64,000 nt of DNA from Oligoflexia bacterium (lineage in GTDB: Bacteria; Bdellovibrionota; UBA1018), in contig CAVWVI010000003.1 in NCBI GenBank assembly GCA_963758495.1, positions 1,184,001 to 1,248,000 of the forward strand. Direction: 5' to 3'. Position 1 is the first letter of the stretch. Each line of letters opens with the position of its first letter. Made by a program: the position numbers and the translations under genes. The notes beneath the pieces are model-generated. The model saw only the letters and a list, made by a program, of their open reading frames with translations. It was not told where the DNA came from and ran no database searches. This document shows, piece after piece, positions 30,213-51,817 of this stretch.

Positions 30213-30668
30213 ATGCCGTTACTCGAAAAGCGACTGCACCGATCTCATCGAGGAGATAAAAAATTACGACAAAATGACTTTGGCATCATGGTTGGTTTTA
30301 ATTCAACAAAGGCATCAGAAGCCCTCGCAGATGGGTTACGGTACTTGAAAGACCACTGGAATTGGAACGGCTCTAAGATCGCTCGAGTTCTCCATCTTTC
30401 TCCAACCACGATCAATGGCTGGATGCGACGAGGGACCATACCGCTTTCAGGTAAAAATATTACTCCAGAAATTGAAGCAGTGATTCATCTTCTTGCTGTT
30501 CATCGGAATTTAGCTTCCATGTTTAGTGAGCCATTCCACCAATTAGAATGGTTGACAACTTCACATCCCGACCTAGGGATTGCACCGCTTAATAAGATGT
30601 CAGAATCCTTAGCTGGACTCATCCATGTACGTCAGTATCTAGACTTTGTGCGAGGTCGCGGCGCATGA
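30213..30668 (+). CDS. Xre/MbcA/ParS-type antitoxin (HTH + C-terminal toxin-binding domain)
   Basis: HTH IARVLHLSPTTINGW; C-terminal WL...HP.LG..PL..M....GL..V..YLD..RG. Confidence 0.8.
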   Translation: MPLLEKRLHRSHRGDKKLRQNDFGIMVGFNSTKASEALADGLRYLKDHWNWNGSKIARVLHLSPTTINGWMRRGTIPLSGKNITPEIEAVIHLLAVHRNLASMFSEPFHQLEWLTTSHPDLGIAPLNKMSESLAGLIHVRQYLDFVRGRGA

Positions 30669-31324
30669 TTGAGGTCTATCGAATCGCAGAAGATCAAGCA
30701 AAACTAACAAGCTACAAAATAACCCAAGACGTAGAAAAAGCCATTCAATTGGAAATGCTGATTGACTTAACCAAACCCTCAATGCCCCACCAAGATTGGC
30801 ATGATCTTATTGCCACACCATTCCGATATGACTTGCCGGTATTGCCTAAATTTCAAGCGCGATTTAGACCTCCCTACTTTTTGAAGAATATCTTTTATTC
30901 ATCTGCTGCTCTCGAAACAGCTCTCTACGAGTGCTCCTATCATATGATGCGACAACGCATTCATCTCCAAACTGGAAAACGTCGAGTCAAAAACGAAACG
31001 GGTACGAGAACAGGATTTTCCGTCAACGCAGATGACTCAAAAGCAGTGCGTATTCACCTGTATCCAAATTTGGCGGCGATTTTGAATAAGTCCGACTATT
31101 CTTCATCACATACCTTGGTGAAGTCAAACCCACAAATTGACTTTATTATCTACCCATCAGTAAGGGATCCTCAGCATCGGGACAACATGGCGATCATGGA
31201 TATTACTTATTTATCACGCCAAATAAACAATGAGAGACAACTGAGTTTCTTTTACGACTACAAAAAGAAAATCGTTACATGGATTAATGCGGGTCTAGCA
31301 ATCACATGGAAAAATATGGGTTAA
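30665..31324 (+). CDS. RES-domain toxin (putative NAD+ phosphorylase/ADP-ribosyltransferase)
   Basis: TPFRY, ARF, FYSS...TALYE, IIYPSVR (R-E-S residues); ATGA coupling to antitoxin. Confidence 0.82.
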   Translation: MIEVYRIAEDQAKLTSYKITQDVEKAIQLEMLIDLTKPSMPHQDWHDLIATPFRYDLPVLPKFQARFRPPYFLKNIFYSSAALETALYECSYHMMRQRIHLQTGKRRVKNETGTRTGFSVNADDSKAVRIHLYPNLAAILNKSDYSSSHTLVKSNPQIDFIIYPSVRDPQHRDNMAIMDITYLSRQINNERQLSFFYDYKKKIVTWINAGLAITWKNMG

Positions 31325-31780: not shown

Positions 31781-32932
31781 TTAGGTACCTTCGGTCTTTA
31801 GTAAATCCAAATACTTCCTATATCCGAAAATACGGTTTCGTTTAGACCTCGATGTTTGTTTCAAGATTCCATTATTGATCAAGATATCTATAGCTTTTGC
31901 GGCTGTTGGCTTTGTCGTATCTAGTAAGTCTACCACTTGGTTCACTGTGATCACTGGGTGATTCGGTAACAATTCAAAGAGACGAATTGCAGGGACAACA
32001 ACGTCTCCAGCGGCAAGGAGTTTGCGCCGATCGGTTTCGAATTGACGAAACAATCGTTGAGAGGTTTGGATAGCTTCCTGGCAGGAAATACTTACGCCTT
32101 CGAGAAAAAACGCAATCCATCCTTCCCAGTCCCCTTTTTGTCGAACAGCATCCAGACGTGTGTAATATTCCTGTTGGTTTCGTTTAAAATGGAGACTTAA
32201 ATAAAGCAGCCGTGCATCCAACAACCCCCAGGCTTCAATGAGTAAAGCAATCAGTAAACGTCCTAGCCTTCCATTCCCATCTAAAAAAGGATGAATCGTC
32301 TCAAATTGAACATGAATGAAGCCTATCCTAATTAAGGGATTTTCCACAGAGTGCCTGTGGAGATAGTCTTCTAATGACTCCAAGCATCGAAGCATGTCGG
32401 AGGGAGGGGGTGGAACAAAGTGGGCATTACTTGGACGCGAACCTCCAATCCAGTTTTGCGAGCTTCTAAATTCTCCTGGCTTTTTGGATGCTCCCCTTAC
32501 ACCTCGCATGAGGCGTTTATGCATTTCTTTGATTAGGCGCAGCGAGAGAGGAAGTCCTTTTGGATCAGAAAGTTGAACTCTTCCATATTGGAGAGAGTCT
32601 AAATAGTTACAAACTTCAAGAAGATCTGCAGTTTCTCGGTCGGGATCTGCCTCATAATTGAAAAGGTCCGCTAAAGTTGCTTGAACTCCTTCAATTTGCG
32701 AAGAGAGAACCGCTTCTTGTCGGACAAATGCGTAATTAAAAAAGTCTGGGCTGGGAACGAGATGAGAAGCGACTCTCAATTCTGAGAGACGCGAGGTGGC
32801 TTCTTGAAGCTTTGCCTTAATCGTTGGAATTTCTTCAAGAAGTGGATCTGGAGGAAGCGGACTTGGAACAAATGCTCGAACTATTTCTCCAGCTGTGGTT
32901 GTTTCGATATATTTTCCAGTGGCTCGTTGCAT
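31781..32932 (-). CDS. Fic-domain protein (class II, N-terminal inhibitory motif, C-terminal HTH)
   Basis: HPFLDGNGRLGR Fic motif, SSQIEG inhibitory motif, C-terminal wHTH-like segment. Confidence 0.93.
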   Translation of the reverse strand: MQRATGKYIETTTAGEIVRAFVPSPLPPDPLLEEIPTIKAKLQEATSRLSELRVASHLVPSPDFFNYAFVRQEAVLSSQIEGVQATLADLFNYEADPDRETADLLEVCNYLDSLQYGRVQLSDPKGLPLSLRLIKEMHKRLMRGVRGASKKPGEFRSSQNWIGGSRPSNAHFVPPPPSDMLRCLESLEDYLHRHSVENPLIRIGFIHVQFETIHPFLDGNGRLGRLLIALLIEAWGLLDARLLYLSLHFKRNQQEYYTRLDAVRQKGDWEGWIAFFLEGVSISCQEAIQTSQRLFRQFETDRRKLLAAGDVVVPAIRLFELLPNHPVITVNQVVDLLDTTKPTAAKAIDILINNGILKQTSRSKRNRIFGYRKYLDLLKTEGT

Positions 32933-38720: not shown

Positions 38721-40702
38721 TTAATCCTGCATTTTTCCCTTGGAACGTGACAACAAATCAGCTGGAGTTTGCCCGTTGTTATCTTTTACGTTCAATGACT
38801 CAGGGTAATTCTTTGCTAGAAATTCAATGATATCTAGCTTTTCTTCCTGTGCAGCATAATGAGCTGGGGTTCGCCCATCGTTATCTTTTGCGTTCAATGA
38901 CTCAGGATATTTCTTTGATAGAAATTTAATGATACCTAGCTTATTCTTTGCTAGAAATTTAATGATATCTAGCTTTCCTTCCTGTGCAGCATAATGAGCT
39001 GGGGTTCGCCCATCGTTATCTTTTGCGTTCAATGACTCAGGATATTTCTTTGATAGAAATTTAATGATACCTAGCTTTCCTCCGTATGCAGCAAAATGCG
39101 CTGGGGTTCGCCCATCGTTATCTTTTACGTTCAATGACTCAGGGTAATTCTTTGCTAGAAATTCAATGATATCTAGCTTTCCTTCCTGTGCAGCATAATG
39201 AGCTGGGGTTCGCCCATCGTTATCTTTTGCGTTCAATGACTCAGGATATTTCTTTGATAGAAATTTAATGATACCTGCTTATTCTTTGCTAGAAATTTAA
39301 TGATATCTAGCTTTCCTTCACGTGCAGCTAAATGAGCTGGGGTTCGCCCATCGTTATCTTTTGCGTTCAAAAATTCATGCTTATTCTTTGCTAGAAATTC
39401 AATGATATCTAGCTTTCCTGCGGATGCAGCTCCATGAGCTGGGGTGTGACCATTGTTATCTTTTGCGTTCAAAGATTCATGCTTATTCTTTACTAGGAAT
39501 TCAATGATATCTAGCTTTCCTGCGTATGCAGCTAAATGAGCTGGGGTTTGACCATTGTTATCTTTTGCGTTCAATGACTCAGGATATTTCTTTGATAGAA
39601 ATTTAATGATATCTAGCTTTCCTGCATATGCGGCTATATGAGCTGGGGTTTGACCGTAGTTATCTTTTGCGTTCAAAGACTCAGGATGATTGTTTATATA
39701 CTTTTCAAAGTTACTGACACTCGCAGACCTTGCCATGTAACAAGCAGGATATTTTCCTAAAATTTCCTGCTTACAAGGTTGCTTGGGAGAGTTCCCGCAA
39801 GTAGTAAGATAAGAAAAATGCTCAACAGAAAAACCACTCGCATCACTCCATCCGTCTTTTCTTCCTTTACCGTAGCTATTAGCTATATTCCACTCATCAT
39901 GACACATAGAGCCACAACAAACCGTCCTTACGCCTGTAATGACCACTGCATGTTTATTGCCGTTCATATTTAAGGGTGTGATAGGTACTTTTTTGAAGTG
40001 ATCTTTTACTACTTCTGCAGCAGAGAGGCTCTCAGATACTTCTAATACATGAACGTTATAAGGAGGAATCGTTACTTTTTCGTGAGGAAGATGATCAATC
40101 AAGTCAAAATGAAAGGTATCTGGATTTTTGGAAATAGCAGCAGCATAGCTTGCGATATCCATGGTGCTGCTTATGATATTTTCATTGATTGAGCTAAGAA
40201 CCCCAACCGCTGATTTTTTACACCCTGGATCAATCCAATGACCACGCGATGATCTGAGCCTTGGCATAATGATGCGGTAAGGCATGTCTTTACTCGTTGA
40301 AATCTGATTTTCCCGGTTTTCTTGAAGTCTATATAAAACAGAGTAGGCTTTTCCACCGTCTACCGCTTCTTTTATGTTTCGATTACAAGAATTCCCAAGT
40401 ACTGAAAAGGGAGAAAGCCCTACTGGCTTTTTATTCTTATTTTGCTCATTGTAAAGGTATTCAAGCATATAAGTAGCCGCAAACCCGTAGCAGGTGCCAA
40501 AATCCAACTGATCGAAATCTTGAGTAGGTTTATATCGATCTTCTATACTCGTTTCGTCTTTAATCCGCTTTTTTTGCCCTGAAGGGCACTCTGCAGGCTG
40601 TGCAAAAGCTTGCAAAGGGGTGATTAAAAGCGAAGCTAAAGTGAGGAGGCCTAACAAGGGGGAGCAGAAGGGGGGCGGCGTGAGGGGCCTAAGCTTGGGC
40701 AT
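38721..40702 (-). pseudogene. Secreted papain-like protease + 8 ankyrin repeats, split by a 1-bp deletion (ORFs 39233-40702 and 38721-39236)
   Basis: DQLDFGTCYGFA, KHAVVITG, IANSYG; 34-aa ankyrin repeats; ATACCTGCTT at 39271 vs GATACCTAGCTT in the sister repeat at 38931. Confidence 0.85.
38770..39690 (-). repeat. 102-bp ankyrin tandem array with a 339-bp higher-order duplication
   Basis: 38779-38980 recurs near-identically at 39118-39319; 339 = 3x102 + 33. Confidence 0.88.
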
Positions 40703-40711
40703 GATCTTATG

Positions 40712-40740
40712 ATTCTAGTGGAATGAAACTAAATCATCAA
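40712..40740 (-). promoter_or_regulatory. sigma70-like promoter of protease-ankyrin gene 1
   Basis: TTGATG-N17-TAGAAT, 9 nt before ATG; both hexamers conserved in the paralogue while the spacer diverges. Confidence 0.6.
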
Positions 40741-40795
40741 CTAGACAGGGTTAAGATCTCCATAAGAGATATATCATAAAATATATCGGTAAATT

Positions 40796-42007
40796 TTACG
40801 GTATAAACGGAAATAATTCCTTAGTTAAACTTATTTCAGGACCAAGGATCTTGAGAAAGTCATCTACAGGAATACACATAATCTGATCATGAGCTTCAAC
40901 TTGTTTTCCTCGATAAAGAAAAAAAAGTTTGGCTTCAGGATAGTCCTGTCCAAAAGTACGCAATCCTTTAAGGTCTTCACTACGAATTCGATTTGAATTT
41001 TTGACCTCAATCGCAACAAACTCATTTTTTCCATAGATCACAAAATCCACTTCCACCTCCGACCGAGTTCGCCAAAAACTTATCGAAATAGATGGATCTC
41101 TATAATCCACCCAAGCCCTGAGATGTTGATGCACAAGGGTTTCTAAGCCTATTCCCTCAATACTTCGAGAATCATCCAGAGGCCCCATGGGCCTCAATGT
41201 TCTGTAGATTCCACAATCAAAAAAATAAAACTTAGAATGCCAACTGAGTTCTCGTTTCGCTCTTCTCTGAAAGACACCTAATCGAGTCCCGATGAGTAGA
41301 TCTTCAATCAACTCGACGTAAGCTTCGGCTGTTTTCTGCTGAACATGAGCTTCTCGACCCATCGCGCTAACATTGAGTGGAGACCCTTGGGAAAAAGTCA
41401 TCACTTCCAGGAAACGAGCAAAACTATCTAGATTTCTTGTCAACCGTTCTTGTAATACTTCTTCTCTGAGATAAGTTCCGATATAAGAACTCAGACTCTC
41501 GCTCGGGTTTTCTGACGCCCAGACTACAGGGAGAGTTCCCATCTCTAACGCCTGAGTTAAACTCCACTGAGAGCCTAGCTCTTTCGCTATAAAAGGATGG
41601 AAATGAAGAGTCAGAGCCCGGCCTGCCAAAAGATCAGCTCCCGAAGATTTCAATTTTCTACTCGATGAGCCTGTTAGGATAAAACGAATCCTCTTACCTA
41701 GGGGTCGTTCCATGAGTTCATGAACTACACTTAATAATGCAGGAACTTTTTGAACTTCATCGAGTATTACGTCGTACAGATTTCCATTTTTGGCTTTCCC
41801 ACTCCCCTGTATAACTCCCTCAATGAGAGAAATGATGGATTCCGGACGAGCCGAGTATCTAGCAAACTCTTGCGGTAATAGTAAGTTGATCATGAGGGCA
41901 TCTGGAAAGTGTCTACGCAAAAACTGGGTTTTACCAGTACCTCGGGGTCCAAATAGAAAAAAGCTCTGTTTTTGAGGAGGCTTACAAAATCGAGGTACAA
42001 GTTCCAT
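40796..42007 (-). CDS. AAA_14 ATPase with C-terminal DUF4143 (PD-(D/E)XK-like) domain
   Basis: GPRGTGKT, ILDEVQ, LTGSS, LAGRA, KFYFFDCG, EVDF..AIEVK; start moved to MELVPR. Confidence 0.9.
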   Translation of the reverse strand: MELVPRFCKPPQKQSFFLFGPRGTGKTQFLRRHFPDALMINLLLPQEFARYSARPESIISLIEGVIQGSGKAKNGNLYDVILDEVQKVPALLSVVHELMERPLGKRIRFILTGSSSRKLKSSGADLLAGRALTLHFHPFIAKELGSQWSLTQALEMGTLPVVWASENPSESLSSYIGTYLREEVLQERLTRNLDSFARFLEVMTFSQGSPLNVSAMGREAHVQQKTAEAYVELIEDLLIGTRLGVFQRRAKRELSWHSKFYFFDCGIYRTLRPMGPLDDSRSIEGIGLETLVHQHLRAWVDYRDPSISISFWRTRSEVEVDFVIYGKNEFVAIEVKNSNRIRSEDLKGLRTFGQDYPEAKLFFLYRGKQVEAHDQIMCIPVDDFLKILGPEISLTKELFPFIP

Positions 42008-42175
42008 AATGAGACTCATTTTAGAGTTAATAACTCTAAAATGCAATAACCCCAAAAAATCTATAGCTCACTACTGTCGCTCAGAAATTAACCGACCGTG
42101 TATAAAACCGAGAGACCAAGCCCTGGTTGGGGCGCGTTCTGTAGGATAGGTGAAAATTTCAATGGAGACACACGG
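41990..42175. repeat. Upstream segment of ATPase, duplicated at ~44113-44300
   Basis: Colinear similarity from TCGAGGTACAAG to CAATGG.GACAC. Confidence 0.88.
42017..42046 (-). promoter_or_regulatory. Promoter with overlapping 27-bp operator palindrome for the ATPase
   Basis: CATTTTAGAGTTA-A-TAACTCTAAAATG perfect arms; minus strand TTGCAT-N17-TAAAAT. Confidence 0.75.
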
Positions 42176-42268
42176 TTTCAGATTTTCCTGTGGAAATAGG
42201 TTTTTTCTCACTTTAACTTTAGGCATTGCCTTGCTTCAATCGTAAGTAGTTCCTTTAGGGCTGTTGAC

Positions 42269-42340
42269 AAGCATTGCAAGGAGTCCTATTGCGCCGTAAA
42301 GATTTGGATTCCCGGCGCAACAGGACTCCTTGCAATGCTT
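42269..42340. repeat. Long inverted repeat (28-bp arms, 1 mismatch), REP/MITE-like or terminator
   Basis: AAGCATTGCAAGGAGTCCTATTGCGCCG ... CGGCGCAACAGGACTCCTTGCAATGCTT, 4 nt after the ankyrin gene stop. Confidence 0.85.
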
Positions 42341-42344
42341 ACTC

Positions 42345-44054
42345 TCAATCCTGCATTTTTCCCTTGGAACGTAACAATTCAGCTGGGGTTTCGCCATCGT
42401 TATCTTTTGCGTTCAAAGACTCAGGGTAATTCTTTGTTAGAAATTCAATGATATCTAGCTTTCCTTCGTATGCAGCTATATGAGCTGGGGTTTGACCGTA
42501 GTTATCTTTTGCGTTCAAAGACTCACGATAATTCTTTGCTAGAAACTCAATGATATCTAGCTTTCCTCCGTATGCCGCTAAATGAGCAGAGGTTCGTCCG
42601 TCGTTATCTTTTGCGTTCAAAGACTTGGGGTAATTCTTTGCTAGAAATTCAATAATATCTAGCTTTCCTCCGTATGCCGCTAAATGAACTGGGGTTTGAC
42701 CATTTATATCTTTTATATTTAAAGACTCACGATGATTCTTTGCTAGAAATTCAATGATATCTAGCTTTCCTTCGTATGCAGCTAAATGAGCTGGGGTTTG
42801 ACCGTAGTTATCTTTTGCGTTCAAAGACTTAGGATAATTCTTTGCTAGAAATTCAATGATATCTAGCTTTCCTCCGTATGCCGCTAAATGAGCATAGGTT
42901 TGTCCGCTGTTATCTTTTGCGTTCAAAGACTCAGGATAATTCTTTGCTAGAAATTCAATGATATCTAGCCTTCCTTCGTATGCAGCTATATGAGCTGGGG
43001 TACTGCCGTTGTTATCTTTATCGTTCAAAGACTCAGGATGATTGTTTATAAATTTTTCAAAGTTACTGACACTCGCAGACCTTGCCATGTAACAAGCAGG
43101 ATATTTTCCTAAAATTTCCTGCTTACAAGGTTGCTTAGGAGAGTTCCCACAAGAAGTAAGATAAGAAAAATAACGAGCAGAAAAACCACTCGCATCACTC
43201 CATCCGTCTTCTATCCCTTTACCCCAGCTATTCGCTATATTCCACTCATCATGACATATGGAGCCACAACAAACCGTCCTCGCACCTGTAATGACCACTG
43301 CATGGTCCTTATCGTTCATATTTAAGGGTGTGATAGGTATTTTTTTAAAGTGATCTTTTACTTCTGCTGTAGCAGCGAGATTATCAGATACTTCTAATAC
43401 ATGCACATTATAAGGAGGTATCGTTATTTTTTCGTGAGCAAGATGATCAATCAAGTCAAAATGAAAGGTATCTGGCCTTTTGGAAATAGCAGCAGCATAG
43501 CTTGCGATATCAATGGTGCTGCTTATGATATTTTCATTGATTGAGCTAAGAACCCCAACTGCTGATTTTTTACACCCTGGATCAATCCAATGACCATCCA
43601 ATGGGCTGAGTCTTGGCATAATGATGTGGTAAGGCATGTCTTTACTCGTTGAAATCTGATTTTCTCGGTTTTCTTGAAGTCTATATAAAACAGAATAGGG
43701 GAATCCACCGTTTACCGCTTTTTTTATGTTTCGATTACAAGAATTCCCCAGTACTGATAAGGGAGAAAGGCCTACTGGCTTTTCACTCTTATTTTGCTGA
43801 TTGTAAAGGTATTCAAGCATGTAAGTGGCCGCAAACCCGTAGCAGGTGCCAAAATCCAACTGATCGAAATCTTGAGTAGGTTTATATCGATCTTCTATAC
43901 TCGTTTCGTCTTTAATCCGCTTTTTTTGCCCTGAAGGGCACTCTGCAGGCTGTGCAAAAGCTTGCAAAGGAGTGATTAAAGGCAAAGCTAAAGTGAGGAG
44001 GCCTAACAAGGGGGAGCAGAAGGGGGGCAGCGTGAGGGGCCTAAGCTTGGGCAT
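42345..44054 (-). CDS. Secreted papain-like cysteine protease + 6 ankyrin repeats (intact paralogue)
   Basis: Signal peptide ending AFA; DQLDFGTCYGFA, DHAVVITG, IANSWG; six NAKD..G.TPAH.AA..GKLDIIEFL repeats. Confidence 0.88.
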   Translation of the reverse strand: MPKLRPLTLPPFCSPLLGLLTLALPLITPLQAFAQPAECPSGQKKRIKDETSIEDRYKPTQDFDQLDFGTCYGFAATYMLEYLYNQQNKSEKPVGLSPLSVLGNSCNRNIKKAVNGGFPYSVLYRLQENRENQISTSKDMPYHIIMPRLSPLDGHWIDPGCKKSAVGVLSSINENIISSTIDIASYAAAISKRPDTFHFDLIDHLAHEKITIPPYNVHVLEVSDNLAATAEVKDHFKKIPITPLNMNDKDHAVVITGARTVCCGSICHDEWNIANSWGKGIEDGWSDASGFSARYFSYLTSCGNSPKQPCKQEILGKYPACYMARSASVSNFEKFINNHPESLNDKDNNGSTPAHIAAYEGRLDIIEFLAKNYPESLNAKDNSGQTYAHLAAYGGKLDIIEFLAKNYPKSLNAKDNYGQTPAHLAAYEGKLDIIEFLAKNHRESLNIKDINGQTPVHLAAYGGKLDIIEFLAKNYPKSLNAKDNDGRTSAHLAAYGGKLDIIEFLAKNYRESLNAKDNYGQTPAHIAAYEGKLDIIEFLTKNYPESLNAKDNDGETPAELLRSKGKMQD

Positions 44055-44110: not shown

Positions 44111-44300
44111 TTATCGAGGTACAAGCCCCATAATGAGACTCATTTTAGAGTGATTAACTCTAAAATGCAATAACCCCAAAAAAATCAATAGATCACAACT
44201 CCCGCTCAAAATTTAACCAACCGTGCAGAAAACCGAGAGACCAATCCCTGGTTGGGGCGCTTTCTGTAGGATACGTGAAAACTTCAATGGGGACACATGG
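44111..44300 (-). pseudogene. Duplicated ATPase promoter/operator plus first six codons (MGLVPR-stop); rest of gene deleted
   Basis: Matches 41990-42175, including the palindrome at 44141-44167. Confidence 0.75.
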
Positions 44301-50038: not shown

Positions 50039-51817
50039 CTACCGCGTTAATTGAATCTGCTGAAGTCTCCCGAGAAGCTCCGCCGAAGTGGGTCTTCGAT
50101 CCGGGTCAGGCTGGATCGCATCCATTGCGAGCTTAAGGAGTGATTTATTGAATTTATCTGTTCTTTCATCTTCGATCCAAGCTTGAAGCTGTTCAGATGT
50201 TTGATGGACAACCCCACTGTAGCATCTTTGAACTTTGACTTTATCTTCCTCTTTCGTCCGACCTTTGCTGGACTCTTTATATTCACAGCTCTCTAGACCG
50301 ATCGCAAGTTCTTTTGTAGGACGAAAACGGTCTTTCATTTTGGCAGGGAACAGCTCATCTGCAAGCATCACTCCCACTGCGAACACATCTCTTTTTAATG
50401 CTCTTGTGGCTTTTGTTTGGGCGTCACCACTTCCTAGACCATAAGAAAGGCATTCGGGAGAAAGATATCCCGGTGTTCCATCGCAGGGCATAGGACCTCG
50501 TAAGTTTTCAGGTTTGGATAGATCAACCGCTAATCCAAAGTCATTGATCACTGTTTCCCGATCATTCACCAACACATTTTCTTTTTTTAGATCTGAATGG
50601 AGGATCTTTGCATGATGTAAATTGACCACCCCTTGAAGCATTTGATTGAAGTAAAGCAGTTTGTGCCGGAGAGCCTCTTTTTCGCTTATGTTAAGATTCC
50701 TATCTATTGTCTTGAAAACATTTTTCATTTCTCCCTGTTCATAGAGAGGAGAGGCTACTTTTTTTCGGAGACTGCCATCCGGTTGTTTTATCAAAATCAC
50801 ACGGGAGTGAATGATCCCTGTCTTATTTGAAATATTTTGAATTTTATTAATAAAATACTCTTCTCTCTCCATTTCAATCCTGTTGAGTTCGTTGTTCTTC
50901 CCGTAAGCCCCCGACACTGCGATGGGCTGAAAAGCTCCATTAATCAGTACAAGCTCTCGTAGAGCGGTTTTAAACCCACCCTCCCCAAGGACTCGACCGG
51001 GATCACTCTTAATGTCCAAATAGAGTTCACCGTCTGCACCAGCCTCCCAAATGCCGAAACTCCCTTTTGAATCGAGTCGTAAAATAGGTGTTCGAATTCT
51101 ATCCAGAGTTCCTGCTTTGTGGCTTCTTCTAAAACGTAGAAGCGCCTCCCGTGTGACTTCAGGATCAAAATCCACACCTCGGGACGTGAGGTATTTCTCA
51201 AGACTTTGATACATTCTATTGAAGCTGGCGTCATCACACGCACCCTGTTTGCTCCGATCGAAGATTTCAGCAATCAGGGAATTCGGCCCCTGTTGGGCGT
51301 CAAGATAACCCTGAAGAGCAATCATCGGATCATCTTTTTCAGAATTGATTCTTTGTTTTTCCGCTAAAAGATGAGCATCTTTAAATTTTTCTTTTAAGAT
51401 CAGGGCTTCGAACGCTTTACCAAAGTAATCATTAGCTTTTTGCTCATAGGGTCTTTCACCTTTTAAAAATTCAATGATGCCGACTTTATTTTTAAAAGAT
51501 TTATTGTCCAGATACATCCAACCCTTGGCATTGAGGATTCTTTCTAGATAGTCGTAGAGGTCATATTTTTCAGTCTCTGTAAGCTTCTTATTGTTTTTTA
51601 ATTCATCGTTGATAGCCTGTTCAGCCTTAAGAAAATGGTTTTTGGCAGCTTCCCAATAGATCTTAAATAGCTCTGGGTTACCTTCAGCGGCCTTTAACTT
51701 TCCTGCTGTGTCAATTGCCCAAGCGTATGAAGTGTCGGCATTTCCTAGATTCGAGAATGCAGGTGCTGAAATTGAAAAAATGAATAGCTGAATTAAAACT
51801 ATATATTTTATTTTCAA
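50039..51817 (-). CDS. Secreted Hanks-type protein kinase
   Basis: Signal peptide ending AFS; LGEGGFK, HSDLKKEN, DFG, GTPGYLSPE, DVFAVG, RRPT. Confidence 0.85.
   Translation of the reverse strand: MKIKYIVLIQLFIFSISAPAFSNLGNADTSYAWAIDTAGKLKAAEGNPELFKIYWEAAKNHFLKAEQAINDELKNNKKLTETEKYDLYDYLERILNAKGWMYLDNKSFKNKVGIIEFLKGERPYEQKANDYFGKAFEALILKEKFKDAHLLAEKQRINSEKDDPMIALQGYLDAQQGPNSLIAEIFDRSKQGACDDASFNRMYQSLEKYLTSRGVDFDPEVTREALLRFRRSHKAGTLDRIRTPILRLDSKGSFGIWEAGADGELYLDIKSDPGRVLGEGGFKTALRELVLINGAFQPIAVSGAYGKNNELNRIEMEREEYFINKIQNISNKTGIIHSRVILIKQPDGSLRKKVASPLYEQGEMKNVFKTIDRNLNISEKEALRHKLLYFNQMLQGVVNLHHAKILHSDLKKENVLVNDRETVINDFGLAVDLSKPENLRGPMPCDGTPGYLSPECLSYGLGSGDAQTKATRALKRDVFAVGVMLADELFPAKMKDRFRPTKELAIGLESCEYKESSKGRTKEEDKVKVQRCYSGVVHQTSEQLQAWIEDERTDKFNKSLLKLAMDAIQPDPDRRPTSAELLGRLQQIQLTR

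Follow-up and report, generated by a model that had tools for sequence, protein, structure and literature searches.

Two paralogous genes on the reverse strand of the window (the whole 64,000-nt stretch of Oligoflexia DNA that was analysed) join a signal-like peptide and a cysteine protease domain to an array of ankyrin repeats, and the locus raises the question of what kind of enzyme they encode and against what it is directed. Gene A was found to be organised as follows (positions are those of the window).

42345..44054, reverse strand: gene A, intact, 569 aa; a signal-like peptide followed by a C1A papain domain and the ankyrin repeats
43953..44054, reverse strand: predicted Sec signal peptide, residues 1-34 (by eye)
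43119..43952, reverse strand: papain-like catalytic domain, about residues 35-312
43860-43862, reverse strand: Gln65
43842-43844, reverse strand: Cys71
43302-43304, reverse strand: His251
43230-43232, reverse strand: Asn275
43017..43151, reverse strand: conserved Cys-containing linker, then the first ankyrin repeat, a degenerate N-cap (together residues 302-346)
42405..43016, reverse strand: six full 34-aa (102-nt) ankyrin repeats, with the C-cap onward to 42345

The signal-like N-terminus, recognised by eye, shows a basic start, an LLGLLTLA core and A-F-A ahead of Q35, and residues 1-34 were modelled with low pLDDT and a single helix (residues 17-27). The full-length model of the gene A product presented a pLDDT of 88.6 and a pTM of 0.87, with pLDDT values of 96-98 over the array, and the stacked helix-turn-helix repeats with their TPxH motif, together with the Pfam Ank match (E = 7.6e-35), identify the repeats as ankyrins. 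Co-folding of the protease half with the ankyrin half gave a score of 0.00, which has no bearing either way.

The papain-type reading of the earlier note was borne out by both profile and structure. Genes A and B matched the Ank families and, above the cut-off, Peptidase_C1 of Pfam (E = 2.5e-7 and 1.5e-4; 31.4 and 22.4 bits against a gathering threshold of 20.7), the latter match covering the N-terminal half only. The Q-x5-C, HAV and NS[W/Y]G motifs that it had listed were all found; Q65, C71, H251 and N275 aligned to cathepsin C motifs with the papain order kept, and across the family alignment the catalytic His was present in all 42 rows, the Cys in 41 and Asn or Asp in 39. The best VIA-align match of the model was a plant C1A protease (Z = 15.2, rmsd 2.7, 177 residues aligned), and cathepsin or papain-family chains were also the best matches in Foldseek and profile searches, with a Foldseek E value of 1e-6 to cathepsin-like chains. 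Sequence and model thus both indicate a papain fold with a Gln-Cys-His-Asn set, and a deubiquitinase of the UfSP/ZUFSP type is less favoured, with VIA-align Z scores of 12.6 and 12.3 compared with 15.2 for the C1A protease. Papain, the cathepsins, xylellain and Lpg2622 share with genes A and B the fold (Z = 13-15), the catalytic residues and a Peptidase_C1 match above cut-off, whereas genes A and B differ from them in a long mid-domain insertion, the marked shortness of the loop preceding the catalytic His, the fused ankyrin array, an identity of 13-22% to the aligned C1A structures and the lack of an I29 prodomain. This inhibitory prodomain is usual in cathepsin L-like C1A members without being universal; in genes A and B no I29 match was obtained at E 0.1 (Pfam) and only about 25 residues separate the signal from the catalytic motif, while another C1 gene of the same genome does carry I29.

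The earlier note had described both genes as signal peptide, protease and six or eight repeats; this holds for gene A, whereas gene B is not a single eight-repeat reading frame and occupies two frames, with the break in repeat 4.

39233..40702, reverse strand: first ORF of gene B (489 aa), with a signal-like peptide, the papain domain, repeats 1-3 and the greater part of repeat 4
40490-40492, reverse strand: Cys71
39950-39952, reverse strand: His251
39878-39880, reverse strand: Asn275
39225..39358, reverse strand: repeat 4, an irregular 134-nt unit and the site of the frame break
38721..39224, reverse strand: repeats 5-8 and C-cap in the second frame (ORF 38721-39236)

The first ORF ends as an out-of-frame tail inside repeat 4, a feature that had escaped the earlier note. 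Repeat 7, 135 nt long, contains a partial duplication that keeps the frame, and over the compared columns repeats 5 and 8 differ by 1 nt and repeats 4 and 7 by 4 nt. The frameshift is possibly an assembly error, because rpoC is broken too, being split across three ORFs in the assembly. The candidate reading of gene B as a pseudogene was rejected in view of the stop-free protease domain under purifying selection and of the same state of rpoC.

The two genes, paired in the wording of the earlier note, were found to be separated by an ATPase gene.

40796..42055, reverse strand: AAA_14 and DUF4143 ATPase gene, member of the duplicated unit
44113..44300, reverse strand: remnant of the ATPase-gene 5' end upstream of gene A, 89% identical to 41989-42175
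42269..42340, no strand: palindromic REP-like hairpin behind gene A, with copies dispersed across the genome

The remnant at 44113..44300 would have been left by a tandem duplication and a subsequent deletion. A polymorphic toxin system was considered and rejected, given that the neighbours are PilZ, AAA_14/DUF4143 and FtsJ genes and that the catalytic domain of A and B is N-terminal; no immunity gene was found among the neighbours of the locus, and no variable C-terminal toxin cassette either.

The variation of the arrays was evaluated for each repeat position. Positions 3, 5, 10, 13 and 14 showed entropies of 1.4-2.0 bits, the residue sets listed there proved exact, and the concentration of variation on the turn and first helix was upheld by the per-position analysis; the framework, said to be almost fixed, is less so, since positions 24, 27 and 28, which lie away from the binding face, also vary (1.2-1.3 bits). 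Repeat shuffling was supported by mosaic repeats. As to the excess of non-synonymous change that had been looked for, the pattern is present and selection is borderline (p ~0.04-0.05): M2a against M1a gave p = 0.038, two of 57 mosaic-null simulations were as high as the observed LRT, and repeat sites 5, 10 and 13 belong to a class with omega of about 3. On the presumed DARPin library positions omega was 1.65 (p = 0.13), and it rose to 2.0 (p = 0.024) once position 10 was included. A value of 3.2 on the five positions of the earlier note was discounted, because these sites had been picked for variability. Eleven repeats taken from further ankyrin genes of this genome showed the same pattern, more strongly, and the pattern is therefore not special to the papain-ankyrin fusion. 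Near-identical arrays mark the A/B subgroup only and not the whole papain-ankyrin family, in which array length and sequence vary widely; repeat identity within an array is 0.78-0.81 in the subgroup compared with 0.29-0.71 in eight other members.

The likeness to DARPins lies in a framework that hardly changes while the turn and helix-1 positions of the concave face vary, the design set out in PMC8229355 and PMC8683736. DARPin structures also dominate the Foldseek matches of the full gene A model. Set against DARPins, the 34-aa repeats of A and B vary at only four of the six presumed library positions, position 10 being the most variable, and their variation extends to the outer-helix positions. 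No generator of diversity was found.

The protease cleft was also compared between the two genes, with the S2 pocket (positions 67, 157, 158, 160 and 205 in Table 1 of PMC5917446) mapped onto gene A.

43170..43703, reverse strand: gene A positions mapped to the S2 pocket, F118 (papain 67), K249/D250 (157/158), A252 (160) and Y295 (about 205)

Four of the five S2 positions differ between A and B, compared with 36 of 291 positions overall (p = 9e-4), the mapping of 157/158 and 205 depending on gapped alignments; the cleft therefore diversifies, besides the ankyrin face. Surface loops, it should be said, are more variable than the average background used for this enrichment. Within the protease domain dN/dS between A and B was 0.50, with no amino-acid change over residues 35-84, and codons 118 and 294 are changed at all three bases at a dS of 0.13. 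At 13 positions A, B and P0003 each have a different residue, and eight of these positions are at or beside the cleft by our own mapping. Changes between A and B cluster outside the cleft too (residues 150-153 and 224-231). The diversification of the cleft is absent from the earlier note.

The fusion was found to belong to a family, with ankyrins in 31 of 43 other database matches; it may also occur outside the Bdellovibrionota clade. The earlier note, which did not notice this wider family, held that a well-described conserved family would speak against its proposal: the family is real, and no description of it, or of RING-bearing Bdellovibrionota, was found in the open-access literature, supplements aside. 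The fusion was detected in seven Bdellovibrionota genomes, all within one 11-tip RpoB clade (SH-aLRT 98, quick tree), and the same clade holds all nine RING-positive genomes among the 75 with the family, compared with none of the 18 genomes having only the stand-alone protease and nine of 301 in the phylum. One genome (G043) has the fusion and no RING match, and three (G053, G084 and G087) have RING and no fusion found. Since the clade represents one evolutionary event, this co-occurrence is not independent evidence. The stand-alone protease is present in relatives outside the clade and in many other Bdellovibrionota; of the 24 matches scanned outside the RING-bearing clade, none has ankyrins, and the tree keeps the ankyrin-fused proteases apart from the stand-alone ones (2 changes versus 22 when shuffled). 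Ankyrin calls are Pfam scans, our own ankyrin HMM missing diverged repeats. A word-index search yielded only three close proteins, with one family member among longer proteins, and a profile scan of the genome contigs with the family alignment found no relative; 29 metagenome loci, matched from residue 264 onward via the repeats, were left out of the analysis.

Evidence for a eukaryotic rather than a bacterial target, which the earlier note had passed over, comes from the genome itself. It encodes about 30 ankyrin proteins and 15 RING ORFs, including Ank+RING and Ank+IBR combinations, as well as 13 kinase matches over cut-off, and RING and IBR domains need a ubiquitin system. Signal-like N-termini were recorded by a crude test in 28 of the 30 Ank and 13 of the 15 RING ORFs versus 1224 of 2385 in the background. 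Concerning secretion, the 3.66-Mb genome has FlhA-type and pilus genes and a GspC-D-E-F-G-J type II cluster; no match to VipB or VirB4 (PF03135) was found in it, its one FHIPEP gene was not distinguishable from flagellar FlhA, and the gene A product is signal-like at its N-terminus. For a cysteine-rich secreted protein an oxidising compartment fits better than the cytosol. Chromulinavorax, of the protist-parasitic Dependentiae, likewise has many signal-peptide ankyrin proteins (98, of which 78% with a signal; PMC6561590), and differs in its phylum and in its reduced 1.2-Mb genome.

On balance, and by a modest preference, A and B are read as C1A protease-ankyrin enzymes, predicted to be exported, whose likely targets are proteins in the cells of a eukaryotic host or prey, with the repeats probably choosing or locating the substrate; a host-directed role is likely because, among the searched genomes, the fusion occurs only in the branch with eukaryote-type ubiquitin-ligase domains. 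Sequence and model show a papain fold with Gln-Cys-His-Asn, joined by a Cys-containing linker to the N-cap and repeats. The protein would be exported through Sec with disulfide formation and then released via the type II system of the genome, and its target, judged by the genomic company, would be eukaryotic and probably a protist, with the phagosome lumen, surface or cytosol as possible sites of action. The ankyrins were likely added to the stand-alone secreted protease common in Bdellovibrionota, and tandem duplication would then have led to divergence at the S2/S1' cleft and the concave ankyrin face through point change, repeat expansion and mosaic exchange; here the sequence change is observed and the selection presumed.

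A common digestive protease, secreted and bearing a sticky tail of ankyrins whose repeats reflect recent expansion and gene conversion under framework constraint only, would account for the omega of 1.65 (p = 0.13), the two simulations in 57 that reach the observed LRT, the same profile in other ankyrin arrays of the genome, and one frameshifted copy beside a third that is an internally deleted remnant, as in gene-family turnover. This reading is unlikely in view of the enrichment of S2 changes, with codons 118 and 294 changed at all three bases, and of a fusion restricted to the RING-bearing clade among the searched genomes. The array could instead be a built-in regulator or self-protection device, an inhibitor replacing the missing prodomain or an activation surface, and not a substrate binder. 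Consistent with this are the missing I29 match and the short spacing of about 25 residues, the linker and N-cap conserved across the family, domains confidently placed in the model (pTM 0.87), the proposal that LegA7 ankyrins modulate catalysis from the opposite face (PMC10983931), and Bd3460, an ankyrin inhibitor of Bdellovibrio's own endopeptidases for self-protection (PMC4686830). Were the array a fixed partner within the molecule, its concave face should be conserved, yet nowhere is variation greater; across the family, arrays differ widely in length and sequence, and stand-alone relatives have no array, so that a regulator is judged quite unlikely.

Bdellovibrionota are mainly known for eating bacteria, and a targeted protease against periplasmic or surface proteins of bacterial prey or competitors agrees with the phylum assignment (MreB 90-96% identical to Oligoflexia records and 81-82% to Bacteriovoracaceae), the pilus and secretin genes and the stand-alone relatives in many other Bdellovibrionota; with ankyrins in none of the 24 outside matches and RING plus IBR in the fusion clade, it appears very unlikely. 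The eukaryote-directed reading can be extended to a tentative scenario, put at somewhat short of even, in which one Bdellovibrionota clade switched from bacterial prey to eukaryotic cells, exporting RING/RBR ligase-like proteins, kinases and ankyrin proteins as an arsenal via Sec and type II secretion, with the papain-ankyrin enzyme as a two-part targeted protease whose cleft and face were retuned in a host arms race. The distribution indicates a clade of Bdellovibrionota that is associated with eukaryotes and apparently not yet described, and raises the question of how signal-peptide proteins such as the RING ones reach a ubiquitin-containing compartment. The A/B pair, with differences in the S2 pocket as well as on the ankyrin face, is handy for gauging the share of the array in protease specificity.

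Protease-plus-ankyrin effectors are known as injected effectors of Gammaproteobacteria and Betaproteobacteria. EspL and RipBH (ShET2, Toxin_15 type III effectors) share with A and B an N-terminal clan CA cysteine protease and C-terminal ankyrins, and the nearest ESM Atlas neighbours were Toxin_15+Ank clusters (similarity <=0.80, a lead only); their set is Cys-His-Asp and their delivery type III, whereas A and B have Gln-Cys-His-Asn (C1A), a signal-like peptide and many cysteines. Membership was rejected on the third residue, Asn, on the Atlas similarity and on the lack of a Toxin_15 match at E 0.1 (Pfam, genes A and B). In RipBH, recognition of the cleavage site is reported to be under the control of the repeats (bioRxiv 2023.03.08.531657). 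The Legionella Dot/Icm effector LegA7/AnkG has the same layout of cysteine protease, inter-domain region and C-terminal ankyrins (PMC10983931), but its protease is HopN1/YopT-like and it is a type IVB substrate; membership was likewise rejected, NCBIfam NF043022 being matched via the repeats only (57 bits against a cut-off of 500). Bd3460 of Bdellovibrio bacteriovorus, from the same phylum, also pairs an ankyrin domain with a secreted peptidase, but as a separate DD-endopeptidase inhibitor, whereas in A and B the array is fused to a cysteine protease. The papain-ankyrin family is apparently an independent, undescribed variant that would work like EspL, RipBH and LegA7 and matches neither family, and its papain/cathepsin-type domain with an export signal represents a seemingly independent solution to the protease-ankyrin design.

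The two window paralogues, each predicted to encode a signal-like peptide and a protease domain ahead of ankyrin repeats, were recovered with the six (gene A) and eight (gene B) repeats claimed for them in the earlier note, gene B being split over two ORFs in the assembly. The frames were as follows:

42345-44054, minus strand: gene A, intact ORF of 569 aa
start 40702, end 39233, minus strand: first ORF of gene B, 489 aa
38721-39236, minus strand: ORF with the remaining repeats of gene B, outside its first ORF

When the DNA was cut into repeat units, the gene A array consisted of six 102-nt units and that of gene B of eight, with unit 4 (134 nt) breaking the frame in the assembly and unit 7 (135 nt) remaining in frame. 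The essential gene rpoC is spread over three ORFs in different frames in the same assembly (G000, GCA_963758495.1; contig C3, 1050915-1055074), so the assembly carries indel errors. Pfam scans placed an AAA_14/DUF4143 gene between B and A, and a remnant of the 5' end of such a gene lies upstream of A, which makes a tandem duplication of a unit of ATPase and protease likely, with later deletion of one ATPase. The genome-wide paralogue search proposed earlier yielded a third copy (L001, C1:329021-329454), which stops prematurely and lacks, by internal deletion, the stretch between the protease start and the last repeat, and a distant paralogue (L010, C4:521483-522943) that keeps the catalytic set and linker cysteines and whose tail gave no Pfam ankyrin match. 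By eye, L001 has an IS200-like transposase and a group II intron-like reverse transcriptase nearby. In the window, a palindromic REP/MITE-like element of about 100 bp (42236-42345, z -9.1) has 75 look-alike loci in G000, at least 80 bp long in 41 of them, and an Xre-antitoxin/RES toxin-like gene pair with a Fic-domain gene, recognized by eye, is inserted among cell-division genes (30213-31324 and 31781-32932).

Both genes matched Peptidase_C1 (above the cut-off) and Ank families in Pfam, as the earlier note had anticipated, and no I29 prodomain was found in either by Pfam scan. Q65, C71, H251 and N275 (gene A numbering) lined up with cathepsin C motifs. The model of residues 35-325 (pLDDT 72.8) had C1A enzymes as its best structural match (Z 15.2, rmsd 2.7, 177 residues), with UfSP and ZUFSP below them (Z 12.6 and 12.3), and the Foldseek matches listed were papain-family chains; the proposed papain fold is thus supported by prediction. 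The full-length model of gene A (42 sequences; pLDDT 88.6, pTM 0.87) showed six repeats between an N-cap and a C-cap.

A word-index database search returned nothing beyond A, B and one close outside homologue, P0003; an exhaustive one yielded 44 representatives (50% identity). The 43 non-self matches, including one false positive and several fragments, carried a Pfam ankyrin match (E 0.01 or better) in 31 cases. In 42 aligned family rows the His was invariant, while 41 rows had the Cys and 39 an Asn/Asp; the fused forms shared a cysteine-containing linker ahead of the first repeat. On a FastTree of 72 domains, from which 11 partial rows were left out and in which P0028 and P0031 counted as fused with weak or absent Pfam support, separating the fused from the stand-alone forms took 2 changes, against 22 when shuffled; the fused form may have arisen once.

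MreB of G000 was 90-96% identical to Oligoflexia-labelled records and 81-82% to Bacteriovoracaceae, which places the genome in Bdellovibrionota. The protease profile was matched (E 1e-5 or better) in 24 of the 75 family genomes; by Pfam scans, six had the fused form (G000, G008, G041, G042, G054 and G055) and 18 stand-alone forms only, and a second profile added G043 as a seventh fusion genome. RING fingers (PF13639) occurred in nine of the 75, namely six of the seven fusion genomes plus G053, G084 and G087, and in none of the 18 stand-alone-only genomes. In an RpoB tree (30 chosen genomes, quick search), the nine RING genomes, G043 and G020 formed one 11-tip clade (SH-aLRT 98). Since these genomes are kin, fusion and RING in one clade count as one event and not as a statistical correlation. 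Across the phylum sample, RING was found in 9 of 301 genomes (two of the nine outside the family) and the protease profile in 49; among 25 protease loci scanned for ankyrins, that of G043 was the only carrier; the remaining matches outside the clade have frames of 330-444 aa. Most C1-like protease loci of the 49 genomes, fused forms counted in, score below the Pfam cut-off, and L236-L260, from other Bdellovibrionota families, encode an uncharacterised stand-alone C1-like protease of about 330-440 aa.

The concave face of ankyrin repeats is the part randomised in DARPin libraries (PMC8229355, PMC8683736). Among the 14 units of A and B, after masking 4 codons of the two irregular units, variability peaked at positions 10, 3, 5, 14 and 13 (2.0-1.4 bits), with 24, 28 and 27 next (1.3-1.2 bits), so that variation falls mainly on the binding face, as claimed, without being confined to it. 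Unlike in DARPins, whose library positions we take to be 2, 3, 5, 13, 14 and 33, there is hardly any variation at positions 2 and 33/34. A codon model whose branch lengths were scaled from a nucleotide tree gave omega 1.65 on these assumed DARPin positions (p 0.13), omega 2.0 when position 10 was added (p 0.024), and omega 3.2 on the five positions named in the earlier note, a set picked after the fact; elsewhere omega was about 0.5. M2a was favoured over M1a (p 0.038; sites 5, 10 and 13), and the observed statistic was reached in 2 of 57 simulations under a null with three block-wise trees, leaving the expected non-synonymous excess borderline. The repeats are mosaic, with 51% of informative site pairs incompatible and fewer among neighbours (p 0.03). 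As a control, three other ankyrin genes of G000 supplied 11 repeats, which gave the same sites with a stronger signal (LRT 27). Mean repeat identity was 0.78-0.81 in A, B and P0003, whereas in eight other family members it was 0.29-0.71, limiting the description of near-identical repeats to the former. From the codon models, simulations, control set and repeat identities, the face-biased variation is real, selection on the face is borderline, and the papain-ankyrin fusion is not set apart by either. A cluster of closely related genes with signal-like peptides and ankyrins, some broken, occupies C4:926036-935214; repeats from two of these together with L151 pointed strongly to diversifying change at concave-face positions.

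The protease domain is overall under purifying selection between A and B (dN/dS 0.50), with no amino-acid change in residues 35-84 and an uneven spread of changes. The S2-pocket positions in papain numbering are 67, 157, 158, 160 and 205 (PMC5917446, Table 1). A and B carry different residues at four of these five, compared with 36 of all 291 positions (hypergeometric p 9e-4); for A and P0003 the counts are again four of five, compared with 47 of 291 (p 0.003). Both p-values are optimistic because residues 150-153 and 224-231 are further hot spots of A-B change and surface positions vary above the domain average. The five correspond to residues 118, 249, 250, 252 and about 295, the mappings of 157/158 and 205 crossing gaps and all depending on how the flanking motifs are taken to be numbered in papain. 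At codons 118 and 294 all three bases differ between A and B, though dS is 0.13.

The strongest lead, ahead of the DARPin analogy, is a clade-wide secretome that appears to be directed at eukaryotes. About 30 ankyrin and 15 RING ORFs were found in G000, and by a crude test hydrophobic N-termini were present in 28 of 30 and 13 of 15, respectively, against 1224 of 2385 in the background. Among them are Ank+RING, Ank+IBR and Ank+double-AAA proteins; 13 kinase matches exceeded the cut-off. Ubiquitin is established as the partner of RING and RBR domains, and their presence thus points to a eukaryotic partner. A type II secretion cluster, pilus secretins and one FHIPEP gene were present, and VipB and VirB4 had no match in this 92% complete genome. 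Nearly all 15 RING ORFs (for example C3:157165-158328, C1:160617-164468, C3:857590-859305, C4:813108-814436 and C1:224057-225424) have signal-like N-termini, and three are fused to ankyrins. L153 (C5:41449-44118) and L157 (C5:48605-51268) combine a signal-like peptide, ankyrins and two ClpB/ClpA-like AAA domains; a basic, Ser-rich segment behind the signal ends in RTYS or RNFST, presumably resembling a mitochondrial presequence cleavage site. L168 (C5:154052-156493) and L169 (C2:77994-80528) carry ankyrins and a C-terminal, RBR-ligase-like IBR near the cut-off. Weak matches were PI3/PI4-kinase (L161), M28 peptidase (L176) and nuclease/phosphatase (L171), each with Ank. A Ser/Thr kinase with a signal-like N-terminus lies in the window (50039-51817, minus strand), with about eight similar kinases elsewhere in G000, and L177 (C4:97158-98876) joins a signal-like N-terminus, a eukaryote-like I29 prodomain, a C1 papain domain and a ricin-B lectin.

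Given the observed fold, motifs, variation and distribution, we infer, with slightly better than even confidence, that a cysteine protease without a prodomain is exported by Sec, released by type II secretion and reaches a eukaryotic host or prey, where the ankyrin face would bind or locate the substrate and the cleft would set the cut site, duplicates diverging in both. The binder-plus-protease proposed earlier, with prey, host or competitor as target, is thereby narrowed towards eukaryotes, in keeping with the RING-bearing clade; an anti-bacterial weapon is improbable. A generic digestive enzyme whose repeats turn over neutrally, a reading favoured by the borderline selection and the stronger signal in the control repeats, is unlikely, and marginally more so is an array that regulates or inhibits its own protease, for which Bd3460 (PMC4686830) and LegA7 (PMC10983931) are precedents.

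Sec-signal ankyrin sets are known in a parasite of protists that belongs to a different phylum (PMC6561590), and a Bdellovibrionota MAG from a sponge was noted to have 12 Ank domains (PMC9944714). The papain-ankyrin fusion is not described in 12 of the 14 places where ankyrins appear in a polymorphic-toxin survey (PMC3482391), nor is the family or a RING-bearing Bdellovibrionota clade in the open-access literature searched. Membership in the RipBH/EspL (bioRxiv 2023.03.08.531657) or LegA7 (PMC10983931) families was considered and rejected: A and B would work in a similar way to those proteins but do not pass either family model, and the papain-ankyrin proteins are set apart by their C1A domain and signal-like peptide.
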